Shown in pieces: positions 7,981 through 32,000 of a stretch of DNA of 32,000 bases (position 1 is its first letter; each line of letters opens with the position of its first letter). Position numbers and translations under genes: made by a program. This stretch comes from Kiritimatiella glycovorans (GTDB taxonomy: Bacteria > Verrucomicrobiota > Kiritimatiellia > Kiritimatiellales > Kiritimatiellaceae). The notes beneath the pieces were generated by a model. The model was given only the letters and a program-made list of their open reading frames with translations. It was not told the DNA's origin and did not search any database. Where the stretch lies: positions 1 to 32,000 of the forward strand of contig NZ_CP010904.1 of the NCBI RefSeq assembly GCF_001017655.1. Direction: 5' to 3'.

Positions 7981-8087
7981 GAACCTATTCCGGCGGTTCT
8001 TCGTAGATTTTTATGGAAGGGTTCCCGGGAAAGGTGGGATGCGGGAGATCGGAAGGGGAGAGAGCATGAAGGTGGGTTGAGGAGGGG
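7981..8087 (+). repeat. P module, subtype 1 (TTCGTAGATTTTTATGGAAGG..., purine-rich)
   Basis: About 85% identical by eye to 27341-27400. Its tail CATGAAGGTGGGTTGAGGAGGGG recurs inverted at 20908-20938 and 27622-27661. Confidence 0.8.
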
Positions 8088-8210
8088 CATAATCCGTACT
8101 CGCACTCGTACTCGTACTCGGAGCGCCGAAGGCGCGATCCCCCTCCCCCGGTTCAAGGAACTCGAGTACGAGTACCGCTTCGCTGAGTACGAGTACGAGT
8201 ACGAATTATG
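8088..8210 (+). repeat. A element copy A1: hexamer-armed palindrome
   Basis: CATAATCC(GTACTC/GCACTC)n, then CTCGGA-GCGCC-GAA-GGCGC-GATCC, a C-tract, GGTTCAAGGAACTC, (GAGTAC)2 CGCTTCGCT (GAGTAC)3 GAATTATG. The termini are inverted repeats. Confidence 0.9.
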
Positions 8211-8243
8211 TCTGTGAATCCCGATTTCGAGATCCCATCCGTG
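8211..8243 (-). repeat. S module (6-nt periodic, ends CGGGATTCACAGA)
   Basis: The reverse complement matches 13895-13925, 18873-18926 and 27794-27844. Confidence 0.75.
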
Positions 8244-8253
8244 TTTTCTCTTA

Positions 8254-8351
8254 CGCTCGTAGTAGGCCCGCAGGCCTGCGAAGCAGGGCCAGGGCCGTTA
8301 TCTTTCACGCGCCTGGCCTGCCGGGGGCAGGCGTGCGGCGCTACTACGAAC
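8254..8351 (-). repeat. Y element copy Y1 (GTAG-headed inverted doublet, REPIN-like)
   Basis: Termini CGCTCGTAGTAG ... CTACTACGAAC. Internal hairpins CCTGC-GAA-GCAGG and GCCTGCC-Cn-GGCAGGC. Homologous to 18663-18760 and 31840-31936. Confidence 0.9.
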
Positions 8352-8358
8352 TTCTTCA

Positions 8359-8459
8359 CGCTCGTAGTAGGCCCGCAGGTCCGCGCAGCGGGGCCAGGGC
8401 CGTTATCTTTCACGCGCCTGGCCTGCCGGGGGGGCAGGCGTGCGGCGCTACTACGAACG
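8359..8459 (-). repeat. Y element copy Y2, tandem to Y1 with a 7-bp gap
   Basis: Termini CGCTCGTAGTAG ... CTACTACGAACG. Same architecture as Y1. Confidence 0.9.
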
Positions 8460-8507
8460 ATATCACGCGCCTTGGCCCTTCGGGCGCTTACGGCGCTATT
8501 ACGAACG
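8460..8507 (-). repeat. Y element partial, diverged copy (Y3)
   Basis: Retains TCACGCGCC ... GGCGCTATTACGAACG, which matches the same half of Y1 and Y2. Confidence 0.6.
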
Positions 8508-8588
8508 TTTGTCGTCTCCCATCCCGCCTCTTCCCCGAACGGCTCCACCACAAAAATCTACGAAGAACCCTATTCCGGCGGTTCTTCG
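8508..8588 (-). repeat. P module, subtype 2 (TTCGTAGATTTTTGTGGTGGAGCCGTTCGGGGAAGAGGCGGGATGG...)
   Basis: The reverse complement is nearly identical to 18603-18662 and 31781-31839. Confidence 0.9.
8549..8588 (-). terminator. intrinsic-terminator-like hairpin plus T5, supplied by the P2 head
   Basis: On the minus strand: CGAAGAACC, 10-nt loop, GGTTCTTCG (perfect 9-bp stem), followed by TAGATTTTTGTGG. The TAG stop of the upstream CDS lies in the loop. Confidence 0.5.
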
Positions 8589-13883: not shown

Positions 13884-13925
13884 GCGGGACGCGCAATCGA
13901 AGCCGAACTCGGGATTCACAGAGAA

Positions 13926-14010
13926 CGTGATTCGTACGCGTACGCGTGCTCGGAGCGCCGCAGGCGCGATGCCACTACCCCGATTCGAGGAAATCGAGTA
14001 CGAGTACGAT
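13926..14010 (+). repeat. A element copy A2
   Basis: GTGATTC(GTACGC)2 GTGCTCGGA-GCGCC-GCA-GGCGC-GATGCCACTACCCCGATTCGAGGAAATC(GAGTAC)2. Confidence 0.85.
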
Positions 14011-14039
14011 GTGACGCGAGCGGAGTTTCCTTTGCTCAC

Positions 14040-14074
14040 CGCAAAAATTACGGAGAACTCTCCGATGGGAGTTC
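14040..14074 (-). terminator. terminator-like hairpin plus T5 just downstream of purB
   Basis: On the minus strand: GAACTC, 8-nt loop, GAGTTC, then TCCGTAATTTTTGCGG. Homologous in layout to the P-head hairpin at 8549-8588. Confidence 0.4.
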
Positions 14075-18534: not shown

Positions 18535-18662
18535 TTCATCCACTGAACAGCCCTATGCAGATCCATATTTTCGATCCCGATTTCGATCATCCGGAAACAT
18601 GGCTCTTCGTAGATTTTTGTGGTGGAGCCGTTCGGGGAAGAGGCGGGATGGAAGACGACAAA

Positions 18663-18760
18663 CGTTCGTAGTAGCGCCGCAAGCCTGCCCCCCCGGCAGG
18701 CCAGGCGCGTGAAGATAACGGCCCTTGTCCGCTGCGCGGACCTGCGGGCCTACTACGAAC
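18663..18760 (+). repeat. Y element copy Y4 (best-preserved copy)
   Basis: Perfect 12-bp terminal inverted repeat CGTTCGTAGTAG / CTACTACGAACG. Hairpin a GCCTGCC-CCCC-GGCAGGC (18681-18698). Hairpin b GTCCGC-TGC-GCGGAC (18726-18740). Confidence 0.92.
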
Positions 18761-18926
18761 GTGAGAGAGAACGCACCATTTCTTTGCCTGTGCTCTTCTC
18801 ATTCATCTTTGCGATCTCTGCGCCTTGGCGAGAGACCTTTCTTGTGTTTTCGGCCACGGATTACACCGATGACACGGATGAAATCTCGAAATCCGAATCG
18901 AAGTCGAAATCGGGATTCAGAGAGAA

Positions 18927-19024
18927 CATAATTCGTACGCGTACTCGGAGCGCCGACGGCGCGATCCCATCCCCCGATTCAAGGAATTCGAGTACGAGTA
19001 CCGCTTCGCTGAGTACGAGTACGA
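18927..19024 (+). repeat. A element copy A3
   Basis: CATAATTC GTACGC GTACTC GGA-GCGCC-GAC-GGCGC-GATCCCATCCCCCGATTCAAGGAATTC (GAGTAC)2 CGCTTCGCT (GAGTAC)2 GA. Confidence 0.9.
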
Positions 19025-19090
19025 CGGGACGCGAGCGGATTTCCCGTCGCCTCACCACAAAAAATTGCGTAGAACCGGAAACATGAACAG

Positions 19091-19156: not shown

Positions 19157-19648
19157 TTAACCGGTCGTGATGTCGATCGTCCGGCGGCCGGACTTGTATT
19201 CCTCGGTTTTGGGAACTTCGACGTGGAGCACCCCGTTCTTGAAGTTCGCCCTGATGTTCTCCGTGTCCACCCCGTCCGGCAGCGGAATCGACCGCTGGAA
19301 CCGGCCGTAGGAGCGTTCGGACACGTAGTAATTTTTCTTCTTGTCCTCGGACTCCTGCTGCTTCTCGCCGGCGATGGTCAGCACGTCACCGTCGAGCGTG
19401 AGCTCCAGGTCGTCTTCCTTCATCCCGGGCAGCTCGGCGTCGACCGAGATCGCGCTGTCGGTCTCCGCGACCTCGAACCGCGGGACGACCGCCCCGAACC
19501 GTTCCGTGTCCCGGAAGGCCGGCATTTCGCCGAAGAAGTCCTCGAACAGTTCGTTCATCCGGCGCTGGAAGCCCTCAAAGGGATCGTACCCTTCGCCTCC
19601 GCGACGCTGGACTTCGTTCCTCCTTCTCCTCGGAATCAGGTTTTTCAT
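19157..19648 (-). CDS. Hsp20/alpha-crystallin small heat-shock protein, 163 aa (third gene of the operon)
   Basis: Start trimmed to ATG 19648 behind AGGAGGTG. ACD motifs AELPGMKEDDLELTLDGDVLTIAGEK ... FKNGVLHVEVPK. Confidence 0.9.
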   Translation of the reverse strand: MKNLIPRRRRNEVQRRGGEGYDPFEGFQRRMNELFEDFFGEMPAFRDTERFGAVVPRFEVAETDSAISVDAELPGMKEDDLELTLDGDVLTIAGEKQQESEDKKKNYYVSERSYGRFQRSIPLPDGVDTENIRANFKNGVLHVEVPKTEEYKSGRRTIDITTG

Positions 19649-19719
19649 AATTACACCTCCTGGTTTGAACGCTTCATTCCATTCGCTCACCGCGGTGCGG
19701 CGATTCCCCGCATCCGCAT

Positions 19720-20127
19720 TCAGCCCGTCCGGACTTCGATTTTCCTGGGACGGGCCTCCTCCGCTTTCGGGAGCGTGACCGTGAGCACCCCGTTCGCGAG
19801 ATGCGCGCGGATGTGGTCCCGGTCCACGCCGGTCAGAAGGCTGAAAGAGCGGCGGAAGATTCCGGTCCGGTATCCCGTATGGACCCGGTCGCGTCCCTCC
19901 GCCTTCTCTTCGGCCTGTTCGCCGGTGACCGTCAAAACATCCTGGTCGAGCTGAAGATCGATTGCGTCGGCGGGAACGCCGGGCATATCGGCCGTCAGCA
20001 CAATGTCCTGCTCCGTCTCGCAGATGTCGCAGGCCGGTGTCAGGATGGCGCGGTCGCGTGCCGGTTCCGCCGCTTCCTCCCGCGCGGGCCGCTCGTTCCG
20101 TTTAACCTGTATATTCCTGTCCGTCAT
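19720..20127 (-). CDS. Hsp20/alpha-crystallin small heat-shock protein, 135 aa (second gene)
   Basis: Start set at ATG 20127 (MTDRNIQ) behind GGAGG. ADMPGVPADAIDLQLDQDVLTVTGEQ ... LANGVLTVTLPK. Confidence 0.88.
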   Translation of the reverse strand: MTDRNIQVKRNERPAREEAAEPARDRAILTPACDICETEQDIVLTADMPGVPADAIDLQLDQDVLTVTGEQAEEKAEGRDRVHTGYRTGIFRRSFSLLTGVDRDHIRAHLANGVLTVTLPKAEEARPRKIEVRTG

Positions 20128-20154
20128 GGTCGCCTCCATGGTTTTGTCGAGTGC

Positions 20155-20580
20155 TTATTCCTCTCCCGTAATCGCAATCCTGCGCGGTCGGGTGGCCTCC
20201 GCGCGCGGGAGCGTGATCTTGAGGATCCCGTCTCGGTACTCGGCGCTCACCTTTTCCCGCTCCACTTCGTAAGGAAGATGGATGCGGCGCGAAAACGAAC
20301 CCGAAAGACGCTCCCTGCGATGCAGCTGCGCCCCCTCGCGGGGCTCGTGCGCCTTGCGCTCGCCCGAGATCGTCAGCTCGTTTCCCTGCACCGTGAGATC
20401 CATGTCTTCAGGCGCTACGCCGGGAACCTCGGCCGCGATCACCGCCTCGTCCTCACCGGTCCACATGTTCACCGGGGGAAAAACCGCCCCCGCTCTTCCA
20501 TAGCCGCTCAGCAGACGATTCATGTCATCCCGGAATCGCTCCATGCTGTCGAACGGATCCCTGTAGTCCAACCAGAACAT
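20155..20580 (-). CDS. Hsp20/alpha-crystallin small heat-shock protein, 141 aa (first gene)
   Basis: Start trimmed to ATG 20580 (MFWLDYRDPFDSM) behind AAGGAGG. AEVPGVAPEDMDLTVQGNELTISGER ... YRDGILKITLPR. Confidence 0.9.
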   Translation of the reverse strand: MFWLDYRDPFDSMERFRDDMNRLLSGYGRAGAVFPPVNMWTGEDEAVIAAEVPGVAPEDMDLTVQGNELTISGERKAHEPREGAQLHRRERLSGSFSRRIHLPYEVEREKVSAEYRDGILKITLPRAEATRPRRIAITGEE

Positions 20581-20622
20581 CTCGCACCTCCTTGTTAGTC
20601 GTTCCCTGTTGCGCCTTTGTTT

Positions 20623-20640
20623 AAGCATAGCTCGTGCCAG
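20623..20640 (-). promoter_or_regulatory. sigma-54 (RpoN) -24/-12 promoter upstream of the hsp20 operon
   Basis: The minus strand reads CTGGCACGAGCTATGCTT against the consensus YTGGCACG-N4-TTGCW. GG and GC have exact spacing and there is one mismatch in the -12 box. It lies about 42 nt upstream of ATG 20580. Confidence 0.6.
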
Positions 20641-20756
20641 AAATGGGCAGGAATTCATAATCCTATGGCGGACAACTTTTTAAGAGCATTGCCATTTAAT
20701 ATATATGTGTCCCTCTGACTCATTGGAGGGGTCGCGGCGGGGCGGAAAAGGGACAT

Positions 20757-20824
20757 AATGGCGCGGCGCGCCCGCGCACGTTTCGGTGCGTTCGGACGTG
20801 TGAGGGGCCGGAAAGGGCTTTTTT
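20757..20824 (+). repeat. T module (CGCAC-GTTTCG-GTGCG hairpin, then GGGGCCGGAAAGGGC plus T6)
   Basis: About 85-90% identical by eye to 31714-31776. Confidence 0.8.
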
Positions 20825-20907
20825 CGTACTCGAGTTCCTCGAATCGGGGGAGGGGGATCGCGCCTTCGGCGCTCCGAGTACGAGTACGAGTGCGCGTACG
20901 GATTATG
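20825..20907 (-). repeat. A element copy A4 (short left arm)
   Basis: The reverse complement reads CATAATCC GTACGC GCACTC GTACTC GTACTC GGA-GCGCC-GAA-GGCGC-GATCCCCCTCCCCCGATTCGAGGAACTC GAGTAC G. It is followed at 20908-20938 by an inverted P1 tail. Confidence 0.88.
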
Positions 20908-20990
20908 CCCCCCTCAACCCACTTTCATGCTCTTGATGGCCGCGACGCAAGCCGTCAGGGGCCGCGTTGCGGGGTGTTTTGCAAGAGGCT

Positions 20991-21038
20991 CTGACTCTGA
21001 TTCTGACTCTGACTCTGACTCTAATTCTGATTCTGACT
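20991..21038 (+). repeat. hexanucleotide microsatellite (CTGAYT)8
   Basis: CTGACT CTGATT CTGACT CTGACT CTGACT CTAATT CTGATT CTGACT. Bracketed by the perfect 10-bp inverted repeat GTTTTGCAAG (20976-20985) / CTTGCAAAAC (21057-21066). Confidence 0.95.
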
Positions 21039-21149
21039 CCCACACCCCGAAAAAGACCTTGCAAAACCCGTGTTGATCCTGTTGAATACTCCGTCCGTTT
21101 TCGATCGTTACGGAAAGAACATGCGCGTTCAGCGTGCGGGGCGGTTAAG

Positions 21150-27211: not shown

Positions 27212-27522
27212 GATAATCTATCCGGTTTTCGTTCCCTGAAAAACGTTCCTTCAGCGCGGTGTTCTGAAGCGGGCGTTGCGCGGACGCACCGCAGGCGCCC
27301 ATGATTGCGGATCTCGGGTTTCATGCAAGGAAGAAGCTCGATCGTGGATTTTTATGGAAGCTTTCCCGGAAAAGGAGGGATGCGGGAGATCGGGGGGAGT
27401 GACTGCGTAAAAAACGCTATCGCGGGGAGAGAATGGGATTCACCATGAAGGACATGAAGAGCATGAAAGTTGCTAGAGGGGGTGGGAGAGCCACCTGAGT
27501 TCAACATGGGGACACCCGGGGG

Positions 27523-27621
27523 AATATCGTACTCGTACTCGTGCTCGAATTCCTTGAATCGGGAAATGGGATCGCGCCTTCGGCGCTCCGAGTACGCGTA
27601 CGAGTACGGGTACGAATTATG
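27523..27621 (-). repeat. A element copy A5
   Basis: The reverse complement reads CATAATTC GTACCC GTACTC GTACGC GTACTC GGA-GCGCC-GAA-GGCGC-GATCCCATTTCCCGATTCAAGGAATTC GAGCAC GAGTAC GAGTAC GATATT. Confidence 0.88.
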
Positions 27622-27661
27622 TTCACCCTCCTCAACCAACCTTCATGTCCTTCATGTGAAG

Positions 27662-27719: not shown

Positions 27720-27844
27720 CGAAGAGGTGCAAGCCGAACCCATGCGTGAGGGTAGGGGCGGACCTGCGGGCCTGCTACGAACGTAAGAGAGACCACGGAT
27801 GGGGTCTCGAATTCCGAATCGAAGTCCACATCGGGATTCACAGA

Positions 27845-27960
27845 CATGATTCGTACTCCTACTCGTACTCGTACGCGCACTCGGAGCGCCGGAGGCGCGT
27901 TTTTTCCAGTTCAAGAAATCGAGTACGAGTACCGCTTCGTTGAGTACGTTTACGAGCACG
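27845..27960 (+). repeat. A element copy A6 (variant: C-tract replaced by T6)
   Basis: CATGATTC GTACTC CTACTC GTACTC GTACGC GCACTC GGA-GCGCC-GGA-GGCGC-GTTTTTTCCAGTTCAAGAAATC (GAGTAC)2 CGCTTCGTT GAGTAC GTTTAC GAGCAC G. Confidence 0.88.
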
Positions 27961-28117
27961 ATGTGACGGGAGCGGATTTCCGGTCCAGCCACTCAACAGG
28001 ATCATAGAGCGGCCCGGCTCCAAAATCCGTTTTAATCCGCACCGTCTGCGGCAAGTCAATCCAGCCGACCGTTCGGCGCCCGGATCGGGCTGCCGGGCGA
28101 AAAAATTCTTCCCGTGC

Positions 28118-30575: not shown

Positions 30576-31571
30576 ATGCTTCTTTCGCGGCCAGCGGTAA
30601 ACTCAGGGATTCTGCGGCGCGCCGGGGTGTGTGCGGTCCTCCTGGCGGCGCTGTGTGCCGGTTCCGTTTCGGCGGATGTCCTCGTACTCAAGAACGGCGA
30701 CCGGCTCAAGGGGCAGTTCGTCAAAAAAGACGCGGGCGTCATTCATTTCCGTTCGGGGATGCTCGGCCTGCTTCAGGTGCCGCAGGCCAAGGTGCGGAAT
30801 GTCATCCGCCCCAAACCGGAACCCAAGCCGAAGCCGCAGGCGAAAAAGGCCCCGCCGAAGCCGGAAAAGAAGTTCGAATGGCGCAAATATTTCTCCGGTC
30901 GTCTCGGCGGCGGCTACACGCTGCGCGACTCGGATTACGAGCAGCGTCAGGGGGCCTCCAGTAATGTGCGGCGCATCAAGCGTGAGGACGAGATATTCCG
31001 GCTCTATGGGAATGTCGACTTCGACTACAAGAACGAGCACCTCAAGTGGGACCTGAACTACCGCTACATGGAACAGGACGATCTGCGCCGCATCGATTTT
31101 CTCGAACTGTCCCAGCTCTACCGCCACGACGTCGGAAAGAAATGGTTCCTGCAGGAGGAAACGAGTTACCACAGGGATTTCCAGCGGCTGGTGGACCGGG
31201 AGATCTGGCAGACCGTCGGCATCGGCTACCGGTTCTTGGACCAGCCGCGGTTTAAACTCCTTGTTGCGATCGGTCCGGCGTACCAGAACCTGGAACAGGA
31301 GGACGTGGGCAGCACCGAACGGATGCTCTTCGCCGTCGATCAGAATCTCGACTGGCGCACGGAAAAGAACCAGCTCCGCTTTTTTGAACAACTTGAGGTG
31401 AGGGCCAACAGCGACCGGCGGCTCATTACCGCGCGCGCCGGCGTCGACAACCGCATGGTCCAAAACCTCTTTCTGCGCCTCGAATACCGCTACGACTACG
31501 ACAGCATCGTCAACCTCGAGGACCCCTTCCTGCGGAAGATGCTGATCACCAGCGTGAACTACCGGTTCTAG
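30576..31571 (+). CDS. DUF481 (YdiY-like) outer-membrane beta-barrel protein, 331 aa
   Basis: Signal peptide ending CAGSVSA-DV. N-terminal VLVLKNGDRLKGQFV motif. Lys/Pro linker, then alternating amphipathic beta strands ending in ..VNYRF. Confidence 0.8.
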   Translation: MLLSRPAVNSGILRRAGVCAVLLAALCAGSVSADVLVLKNGDRLKGQFVKKDAGVIHFRSGMLGLLQVPQAKVRNVIRPKPEPKPKPQAKKAPPKPEKKFEWRKYFSGRLGGGYTLRDSDYEQRQGASSNVRRIKREDEIFRLYGNVDFDYKNEHLKWDLNYRYMEQDDLRRIDFLELSQLYRHDVGKKWFLQEETSYHRDFQRLVDREIWQTVGIGYRFLDQPRFKLLVAIGPAYQNLEQEDVGSTERMLFAVDQNLDWRTEKNQLRFFEQLEVRANSDRRLITARAGVDNRMVQNLFLRLEYRYDYDSIVNLEDPFLRKMLITSVNYRF

Positions 31572-31713: not shown

Positions 31714-32000
31714 CATGGCGCGCACGCGTACGTTTCGGTGCGTTCGGACGTGTGAGGGCCCGAAAAGGGCTTTTTTGGATTCTTCGCAGATTTTTGTGGT
31801 GGAGCCGTTCGGGGAAGAGGCGGGATGGAAGACGACAAACGTTCGTAGTAGCGCCGCACGCCTGCCCCGGCAGGCCAGGCGCGTGAAAGATAACGGCCCT
31901 TGTCCGCTACGCGGACCTGCGGGCCTACTACGAACGTAAGAGAGAACGCACCATTTCTTTGCCTGTGCTCTTCTCATCCATCTTTGCGATTTCCGGGTAG
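31714..32000. repeat. composite repeat block R5: T, P2, Y5, X (cut by the window end)
   Basis: T at 31714-31776; P2 at 31777-31839; Y5 at 31840-31936; X at 31937-32000. The span 31781-31995 is about 95% identical by eye to 18603-18818, in the same orientation. Confidence 0.9.
31840..31936 (+). repeat. Y element copy Y5
   Basis: CGTTCGTAGTAG ... CTACTACGAACG. Hairpin b is GTCCGC-TAC-GCGGAC, and the hairpin a C-tract is shortened to 4 C. Confidence 0.92.

Follow-up and report, generated by a model that had tools for sequence, protein, structure and literature searches.

Repetitive extragenic palindromes (REPs) are known to occur in mosaic intergenic clusters in which they are interleaved with other repeat families (PMC3733652), and modular repeats with a variable number of modules have also been described (PMC3049150). 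REPs and the bacterial interspersed mosaic elements (BIMEs) are reported to influence termination and mRNA stability (PMC3733652; PMC3049150). Here we analyse element A, a repeat present in six copies in the first 32,000 nucleotides of the chromosome of Kiritimatiella glycovorans L21-Fru-AB (NZ_CP010904.1, positions 1 to 32,000, hereafter the window), in which a small hairpin lies between inverted arrays of a GTAC-containing hexamer.

Arms of comparable construction are found in the foldback (FB) transposons, kilobase-scale elements of eukaryotes in which the inverted arms consist of tandem short units, their number varying between copies and between arms, with a unique loop inside. The chromosome of strain L21-Fru-AB measures 2,949,723 bp, has a G+C content of 63.3% and carries 75 transposase genes; the main text of the genome paper mentions no interspersed repeat family (PMC5148204). 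The sample of element A considered here comprises six copies from 1% of this genome.

Our results identify A as a new family of an ordinary, known kind of bacterial mosaic repeat, and nothing in them shows a DNA switch. In our judgement A is probably, though by no means assuredly, a lineage-specific, non-coding interspersed palindromic repeat of the foldback type that forms part of BIME- and BOX-like intergenic mosaics. Several other readings, in which the element is an invertible segment, a substrate of a single-strand-DNA enzyme, an RNA element or a protein-binding array, are weighed below beside the evidence that bears on them.

Results

Anatomy of the six copies

The six copies listed in the initial annotation of the window were all recovered at the coordinates given there, four on the forward and two on the reverse strand (Table 1). 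Their length ranges from 83 to 123 bp, 604 bp in total, and in element orientation they follow the layout [CATAATYC]-(GTACNC)2-5-GGA-GCGCC-GNN-GGCGC-G(A/T)T-pyrimidine tract-TTCRAGRAA-(N)-TC-(GAGTAC)1-2-[CGCTTCGYT-(GAGTAC)2-3]-[GAATTATG]. The core is polar, consisting of a 5-bp G+C hairpin, a pyrimidine tract and a GATTCRAGGAA box in this order, with inverted hexamer arrays on both sides. The number of hexamers varies between copies, from two to five in the proximal and from one to five in the distal arm.

Chance does not account for this set. The pattern GCGCC-NNN-GGCGC occurs six times in the window against 0.52 expected, a result seen in none of 100 shuffles, and a flank-anchored pattern that leaves the stem unspecified retrieves the same six copies against 0.00 expected. 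Compared with each other by BLAST, the copies give E-values of 1e-46 to 1e-16. Dimers of GAGTACGAGTAC are confined to the six elements, with the exception of two one-mismatch matches in coding sequence, and a search of the window for partial or solo copies found none.

The common structure is nevertheless looser than first described. Termini shared at both ends had been attributed to all copies, and this is true of A1 only: the distal arms of A2, A3 and A6 stop at one common point, ...GAGTACGA (...ACGA), and then run into another repeat, the tail module, while A2 begins with CGTGATTC and A6 with CATGATTC, neither of them CATAATYC. Similarly, from the motif GGA-GCGCC-NNN-GGCGC-GATCC, once assigned to every copy, the stem is retained in all six and is preceded in each by GTACNC-GGA, whereas GATCC reads GATGC in A2 and GTTTT in A6. 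In A1, A3 and A6, the distal hexamer array is broken by a 9-nt insert, CGCTTCGCT (CGCTTCGTT in A6), which is the reverse complement of AGCGAAGCG and carries the canonical extra-stable DNA mini-hairpin GCGAAGC on the strand opposite to the G-N-A hairpin of the core. A second candidate hairpin, TCRAG-GAA-NTCGA, is perfect in A4 alone and hence is not conserved.

Because the tract between hairpin and box measures 13, 13, 12, 13, 12 and 8 nt in the six copies, which breaks any common reading frame, A is non-coding. A coding role for the (EY)n, (TR)n and (VR)n dipeptide repeats was likewise ruled out, as indels between copies break the frame. A 65-aa open reading frame (ORF) at 18861-19058 on the reverse strand, running through the tail, A3 and the S module, is present in a public collection as predicted protein P0121. 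Among 1.84 billion representative proteins it has no relative but itself, and it has almost certainly arisen from the repeat through an error of gene calling. A protein search with a repeat-spanning ORF gave no matches.

The elements hold 34 of the 106 GTAC sites of the window within their 604 bp. Plasmid centromeres are typically composed of short iterated repeats, direct and inverted, and with a window that is origin-proximal, beginning with dnaA and dnaN, one could suppose that the inverted GTAC hexamers are iterons bound by a dimeric protein, for example as centromere-like or nucleoid-organising sites close to the origin. We regard this as highly improbable, given that the arrays are impure and vary from one to five units, that A sits within REP-like mosaics beside other modules of selfish appearance, and that no candidate binding protein was identified. 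A link with restriction-modification through GTAC avoidance was also considered and ruled out, GTAC outside the elements not being depleted (observed/expected 0.88).

Table 1. Element A and its partner modules in the 32,000-nt window (positions counted from the first nucleotide).
Feature	Position	Strand	Description
A1	8088-8210	+	sole copy with both termini; arms 26 nt, 92% complementary
A1, proximal part	8088-8119	+	CATAATCC 8088-8095; four hexamers 8096-8119
A1, core	8123-8160	+	hairpin GCGCC-GAA-GGCGC 8123-8135; C-tract 8139-8151; TTCAAGGAA box 8152-8160
A1, distal part	8164-8210	+	GAGTAC x2 8164-8175; insert CGCTTCGCT 8176-8184; GAGTAC x3 8185-8202; GAATTATG 8203-8210
A2	13926-14010	+	three impure proximal hexamers; loop GCA, hairpin 13955-13967; two distal hexamers; no long stem
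A3	18927-19024	+	two proximal hexamers; loop GAC, hairpin 18950-18962; distal hexamers 2+2, insert CGCTTCGCT 19002-19010
A4	20825-20907	-	four proximal hexamers; hairpin 20860-20872, loop GAA on element strand; one distal hexamer
A5	27523-27621	-	four proximal hexamers; hairpin 27574-27586; three distal hexamers; degenerate end GATATT
A6	27845-27960	+	five proximal hexamers; loop GGA, hairpin 27886-27898; insert CGCTTCGTT 27933-27941 in distal arm
S, short form	8211-8243	-	attached at A1's distal ATTATG end
S	13895-13925	+	cut short by the pheS stop; attached at the proximal CATAAT end
S	18873-18926	+	joined to the proximal CATAAT end
S	27794-27844	+	joined to the proximal CATAAT end
H (CATGAAGGTGGGTTGAGGAGGGG; CATGAAGGTGGGTTGAGG)	8061-8087	+	on the hairpin-proximal CATAAT end of A1
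H	20908-20933	-	on the hairpin-proximal CATAAT end of A4
H	27622-27657	-	on the hairpin-proximal CATAAT end of A5
Tail (YGKGACGCGAGCGGATTTCC...)	19025-19063	+	at A3; in place of the distal-arm ATTATG terminus
Tail	14011-14047		at A2; in place of the distal-arm ATTATG terminus
Tail	27961-27987		at A6; in place of the distal-arm ATTATG terminus
R	18662-18772	+	about 100 nt
R	8253-8351		about 100 nt
R	8356-8459		about 100 nt
R	31839-31947		about 100 nt
R, fragment	27758-27792		
T	8001-8052		contains TCGTAGATTTTT
T	27342-27393		contains TCGTAGATTTTT
T'	8486-8567		contains TCGTAGATTTTT
T'	18604-18691		contains TCGTAGATTTTT
T'	31781-31868		contains TCGTAGATTTTT

Intergenic mosaics and the origin of A1

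Comparison of the window with itself revealed that A is one of several modules (T/T', R, S, A, H and tail) that recur in differing combinations across six long intergenic regions. The composite T'-R-S-A-tail, of which A3 is part, occupies 18604-19063; it is found inverted and with R doubled at 8567-8088, and starts anew at 31781, to be cut off by the end of the window. The combination H-A recurs three times, and the S copies differ in the number of their internal short repeats.

S is found next to the hairpin-proximal arm of A2, A3 and A6 but next to the distal arm of A1, so that, as had been observed before, the core exists in both orientations relative to S. Two explanations had been offered for this, an invertible segment and recombination between the arms. 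In support of the latter, the left part of A1 matches A4 in its H flank, in 31 of 32 positions of the proximal arm and in 45 of 47 positions of the core, while its distal arm is identical to that of A3 over 32 of 32 positions, the 9-nt insert included. Beyond the A3-like stretch, A1 gains one hexamer and a complete terminus, followed by the inverted S-R-R-T' composite. Judged from these identities, A1 is a chimera of an A4-like left and an A3-like right part, and recombination through the hexamer arrays thereby explains the presence of S on either side without programmed inversion. The arms are the same array in opposite orientation, which makes the distal arm of one copy a direct repeat of the proximal arm of a second copy that lies inverted; one deletion or exchange between the two yields exactly the arrangement seen at A1.

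A programmed invertible segment, the core of which would be flipped between the inverted hexamer arms by a recombinase or by arm recombination and would act as a switch, is by comparison very improbable. The polar core between inverted arms, the position of S at A1 and the fact that the distal-arm insert of A1 lies on the S side, where an inversion would bring it if the crossover fell in the outermost hexamers, are all in keeping with it. However, if an S-A-tail copy were flipped, the tail would end up on the far side, where A1 (like A4 and A5) has H plus a terminus; simple inversion hence does not produce A1. With H always proximal and the tail always distal, the polarity of the core is fixed relative to two of its three partners. 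Furthermore, the second terminus is absent from five of the six copies, A2 and A4 are nearly devoid of arm pairing, and GTACGC units occur only in proximal arms. Neither a serine nor a tyrosine recombinase was found among the 39 ORFs of the window scanned with Pfam, nor was a sigma-70-like promoter inside any core; a promoter combining a -35 box in S with CATAAT as -10 box was found at A3 only, is not conserved in A2 or A6, and was discarded. Arms of 12-26 bp are, moreover, at or below the usual length for efficient homologous recombination. The invertible segment has no positive support in the window; inversion at a low level may nevertheless occur.

The R module deserves separate mention as a partner whose structure can be followed across copies. 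It consists of two TCGTAGTAG-tagged palindromes, rich in G+C and inverted relative to each other, and resembles a GTAG-REP dimer or heterodimer, or a REPIN. One of its arms forms a 5-bp hairpin with G-N-A loops in four of four copies (GAA, GCA, GCA and GTA) and with two compensatory pair changes (C-G / T.G / T-A, and T-A / C-G); the other forms the hairpin CCTGCC-C3-5-GGCAGG.

A number of further features were noted in the partner modules. H carries a four-codon mini-ORF, ATG AAR GTN GGT TGA (MKVG-stop), in three of three copies, at 8066-8080 (+), 20928-20914 (-) and 27646-27632 (-), in which the only two substitutions, AAG>AAA and GTG>GTT, are both synonymous, something that could be chance with three copies; at A1 it is preceded by the purine-rich stretch GGAAGGGGAGAGAG. 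A degenerate inverted H copy at 27452-27482 (+) forms an inverted pair with 27627-27657 around A5. T and T' have in common TCTTCGTAGATTTTT(A/G)TGG and a TCGTAG motif as in the heads of R, and T' holds a GTG-initiated ORF start (MVEPFGEEAGW...) which opens spurious ORFs through the composites. An insert of about 100 nt between R and S, common to intergenic regions III and VI, contains at 18751-18815 (-) a weak Rfam match to group II intron domain-5 (20.7 bits, E=2.3), which is far under the gathering score and probably due to chance.

Conservation of the hairpin and pairing of the arms

In the alignment of the six copies, all five pairs of the core hairpin are invariant around loops that do differ, as reported earlier (GAA three times, GCA, GAC and GGA in element orientation). 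Since the stem pairs never vary, they provide no covariation evidence for or against the structure of A. The accompanying suggestion, that selection acts on the structure rather than on the loop, cannot be shown with a stem that is invariant, three loop changes that are too few, and a loop that is itself constrained; the invariant block, besides, reaches past the stem to CTCGGA on the 5' side and G on the 3' side. Structural conservation is demonstrable for the R module and not for A.

Five of the six copies have a G-N-A loop closed by C:G, formable on one element strand only, and d(C-GNA-G) is an extra-stable type of DNA mini-hairpin (PMC13037366; PMC3201870). That G-N-A triloop hairpins occur in two unrelated modules, A and R, may point to one mechanism, common to both, that acts on single-stranded DNA. 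In its most direct form, A would be a REP-like substrate of a single-strand-DNA enzyme of the HUH, RAYT or IS200-IS605 type, the GTAC-flanked hairpin serving as recognition element and the hexamers as iterated tags. The GCGAAGC borne by the insert CGCTTCGCT on its other strand and the GTAG-tagged R doublet beside A, with its G-N-A loops and compensatory changes, agree with such a role, and GTAG REPs are known in Verrucomicrobia (Opitutus terrae) and in Planctomycetes (PMC3733652). On the other hand, an unpaired GTAG or CGTC tag is absent from six of six A copies, the TCGTAGTAG tag lying on the neighbouring R instead, and although A resembles REPs in its small, tagged hairpin, the GTAC tag places it outside those superfamilies (PMC3733652), to which R appears to belong. 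Each A has one hairpin and no doublet, the window holds no HUH gene, of the three loop substitutions, two affect the middle base (chance p about 0.26), and the strand bias of 4 to 2 is not significant. We consider this reading unlikely, if tenable.

A more elaborate version appears decidedly unlikely: the core of A and the R hairpin would both be d(C-GNA-G) mini-hairpins for a HUH-type enzyme, the GTACNC arrays would be series of tags for cleavage or recognition that successive strand transfers left behind, and the enzyme, or template switching between arms, would flip or exchange the cores. If true, a HUH-recognised A hairpin would define a new class of mobile hairpin, REP-like, tagged with GTAC and provided with expandable arms, of which none has been described in the phylum.

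A stem of 12-25 bp had been proposed for each copy through pairing of the arms. This failed for A2 and A4; A1, A3, A5 and A6 fold better than shuffled sequences. The z-scores are lowest in A1 (-6.1 and -7.4) and A5 (about -6), giving a range of -6 to -7 for these two, and are moderate in A3 and A6 (-2 to -4); A2 and A4, with -0.9 to -1.9 (A2: -0.9 and -1.1), are not significant, A2 having no inverted repeat of at least 10 nt and A4 a pairing of only about 8-9 bp. Among the 13 innermost arm pairs there were no compensatory changes, and in four of five copies the pair at columns 31-90 is a mismatch, as a result of GTACGC units being found only in proximal arms, against nearly pure GAGTAC in distal ones. 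The arms of A are thus not kept complementary.

Gene context and the terminator-like variant

The origin-proximal window opens with dnaA (1-1362) and dnaN (1598-2722) and bears housekeeping genes throughout (dnaA, dnaN, pheS, purB, ilvD, three hsp20, rpmE, prfA, mnmG, alaS and rsmG). All six copies of A lie between genes, in tandem (A1), convergent (A2, A3) and divergent (A4, A5/A6) contexts, and their orientation follows no fixed rule with respect to transcription. A2 is located between convergent genes, 43 nt past the pheS stop and 95 nt past that of purB, and the composite with A3 between a SpoU methylase gene (+) and hsp20 (-). A4 lies in the divergent hsp20/rpmE region, where its distal hexamer abuts a terminator-like module at 20765-20824, and A5 and A6 share the divergent region between alaS and a CBS gene. 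These two form an inverted pair with 43-nt arms (27573-27615 / 27857-27899) that are 91% identical and 241 nt apart; the repeat encloses H, the R fragment and S, and is a plausible site of local inversion or hairpin formation.

A6 had been singled out as a terminator-like variant, and it is indeed the sole copy scored as such: its hairpin is followed by G and then by T6 (27900-27905) in place of the C-tract. The stem, however, has 5 bp only and there is no co-oriented gene upstream. The nearest genes are alaS (-), upstream, and, about 210 nt downstream, the CBS gene (+), which places the hairpin in a 5' region rather than behind a gene.

The same data bear on whether A is a selected RNA element, in which the arm stem plus the small hairpin would act as a terminator, 3'-end stabiliser or RNase III target and A6 would be an intrinsic-terminator variant. 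A1, A5, A6 and A3 fold strongly on both strands, A2 and A3 occupy the space between convergent genes, the A6 hairpin with its T6 scores as terminator-like, and the effects on termination and mRNA stability reported for REPs and BIMEs (see above) provide a precedent. Yet orientation is inconsistent with respect to flanking transcription, A4, A5 and A6 being in divergent promoter regions; A2, the copy best placed for termination, has no significant stem; arm mismatches are uncompensated and covariation is absent; the A6 stem has the shortcomings just given; and no Rfam family matches. An RNA role of this kind is, in our view, quite unlikely.

Other repeats were observed in the same regions. The terminator-like module is a 60-nt sequence with a second copy (93% identity) at 31717-31776, and ends in a hairpin plus T6 (GGGGCCGGAAAGGGCTTTTTT); one copy follows a + gene (30576-31571), and the other, abutting A4, is upstream of hsp20 with no preceding + gene. 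The three hsp20 paralogues stand in tandem on the reverse strand (19157-19690, 19720-20139 and 20155-20658), with a repeat-filled intergenic region on either side. About 110 nt upstream of rpmE, at 20989-21039, lies an unrelated hexamer array, (CTCTGA)8.5, with 86% match, bracketed by 10-11-nt inverted repeats (20967-20985 / 21042-21067).

Occurrence in other sequence collections

A search of the window against Rfam, at the gathering and E<=5 thresholds, gave no match to A or to any other module, tRNA-Gln and two chance-level matches being the only results. The flank-anchored pattern retrieved 55 loci from 241 million metagenome contigs, all of them chance matches in unrelated sequence, most of which represent one recurring marine sequence. 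No match to A was obtained in viral contigs by pattern scan, nor in plasmids and phages by blastn in distant mode. In the nearest Kiritimatiellae (65% PurB identity), about 80 kb around purB at five loci contained none of the modules, and purB is not adjacent to pheS there. A scan of genome contigs with CTCGGAGCGCCNNNGGCGCG returned at least 120 chance matches, with no A among the matches listed; this pattern is too loose for G+C-rich genomes, which makes the scan uninformative, and it does not establish the absence of A from other sequenced genomes. Within the collections searched, the A family is lineage-specific.

Discussion

The features of A agree in several respects with those by which mosaic and miniature elements are recognised. 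Like MITEs (miniature transposable elements with inverted repeats), it is small (below about 500 bp), non-coding and dispersed; terminal inverted repeats are present at both ends of A1 (26 nt, 92%), and A2-A6 lack the distal ATTATG terminus, with arms absent or short in A2 and A4. In four of six copies, GGA-GCGCC-GNA-GGCGC-(GA)-TCC forms an imperfect palindrome of 21-23 nt. The architecture is BIME-like, palindromic units being combined with other motifs, in either orientation, in extragenic clusters that occupy six regions.

If A is indeed an interspersed palindromic repeat of the foldback type, its copies would multiply within larger composites (S-A-tail; T-H-A), through an enzyme acting in trans, recombination, or both, and slippage would make the hexamer arrays grow and shrink. 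The arms, because they are the same sequence in opposite orientation, could act as portable homology for the exchange of flanks between copies, and such an exchange may have brought S to A1's distal side. If A affects the cell at all, it would do so incidentally, through hairpins in single-stranded DNA or in transcripts, as by RNA 3'-end protection or pausing, and not as a switch that depends on orientation. The cognate insertion sequence (IS), if any, would be expected to have ends beginning with CATAATYCGTAC.

Several observations weigh against this interpretation. No target-site duplication is visible around A1, the only complete copy (GAGGAGGGG before and TCTGTGAAT after the element), although a TA duplication may be hidden within CA-TA-AT...AT-TA-TG; the 39 ORFs of the window scanned with Pfam include no transposase or HUH enzyme; the mobility of A is inferred; and six copies from so small a part of the genome stand behind the description of the family. 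In addition, the block CTCGGA-GCGCC-G..-GGCGC-G is invariant while the adjoining tract varies, and invariant columns amount to 10 of 10 in the stem against about 20 of 34 elsewhere in the core (hypergeometric p about 0.01, ignoring relatedness), a conservation that would allow the hairpin a function under selection.

The practical value of the finding, if A is a mosaic repeat as we favour, is modest. It provides a first account of the interspersed-repeat content in the only genome-sequenced Kiritimatiella type strain, and for annotation it implies that these repeats have given rise to at least one spurious protein call (P0121). The variable hexamer arrays would serve as markers for strain typing, and the inverted A5/A6 pair and the chimeric A1 mark likely sites of rearrangement, which fits the known genome plasticity of the strain with its 75 transposase genes. 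The G-N-A hairpin theme common to A and the GTAG-REP doublet R is the sole lead that could raise the significance of the A family.

Comparison with known systems

Of the described systems, the invertons (fimS, hin) share with A the inverted repeats that flank a polar segment, and differ in that A has no recombinase nearby, no promoter or coding cargo, and in most copies no second repeat, and that there is no evidence of two states at one A locus. FB transposons resemble A in having arms of tandem units around a unique loop; the arms of A, in contrast, measure 6-30 bp, and its mobility is putative.

A resembles MITEs such as the Correia elements of Neisseria in being under 200 bp, non-coding and dispersed, with terminal inverted repeats and strong pairing in its best copies. 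The pneumococcal BOX element (boxA-(boxB)n-boxC) likewise contains a tandem module in variable number (PMC3049150), and gene callers sometimes call ORFs through elements of both kinds (PMC3049150), as with P0121, which spans A3. A differs from them in having no visible target-site duplication, both termini in a single copy and no known cognate IS, and from BOX in that its tandem module is 6 bp long and forms the inverted arms themselves rather than an internal array.

BIMEs and mosaic REP clusters, as known from E. coli and from the mosaic intergenic regions of Neisseria, have in common with A extragenic palindromic units combined with a few conserved motifs in either orientation (PMC3733652). 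Tandem, convergent and divergent gene gaps are occupied in both, and the clusters of A include the GTAG-tagged doublet R. Unlike BIMEs, A has a hairpin of 5 bp without a GTAG or CGTC tag, flanked by tandem hexamer arrays that BIMEs lack, and in the Rfam, plasmid, phage and viral-contig searches it displayed no sequence kinship to described families.

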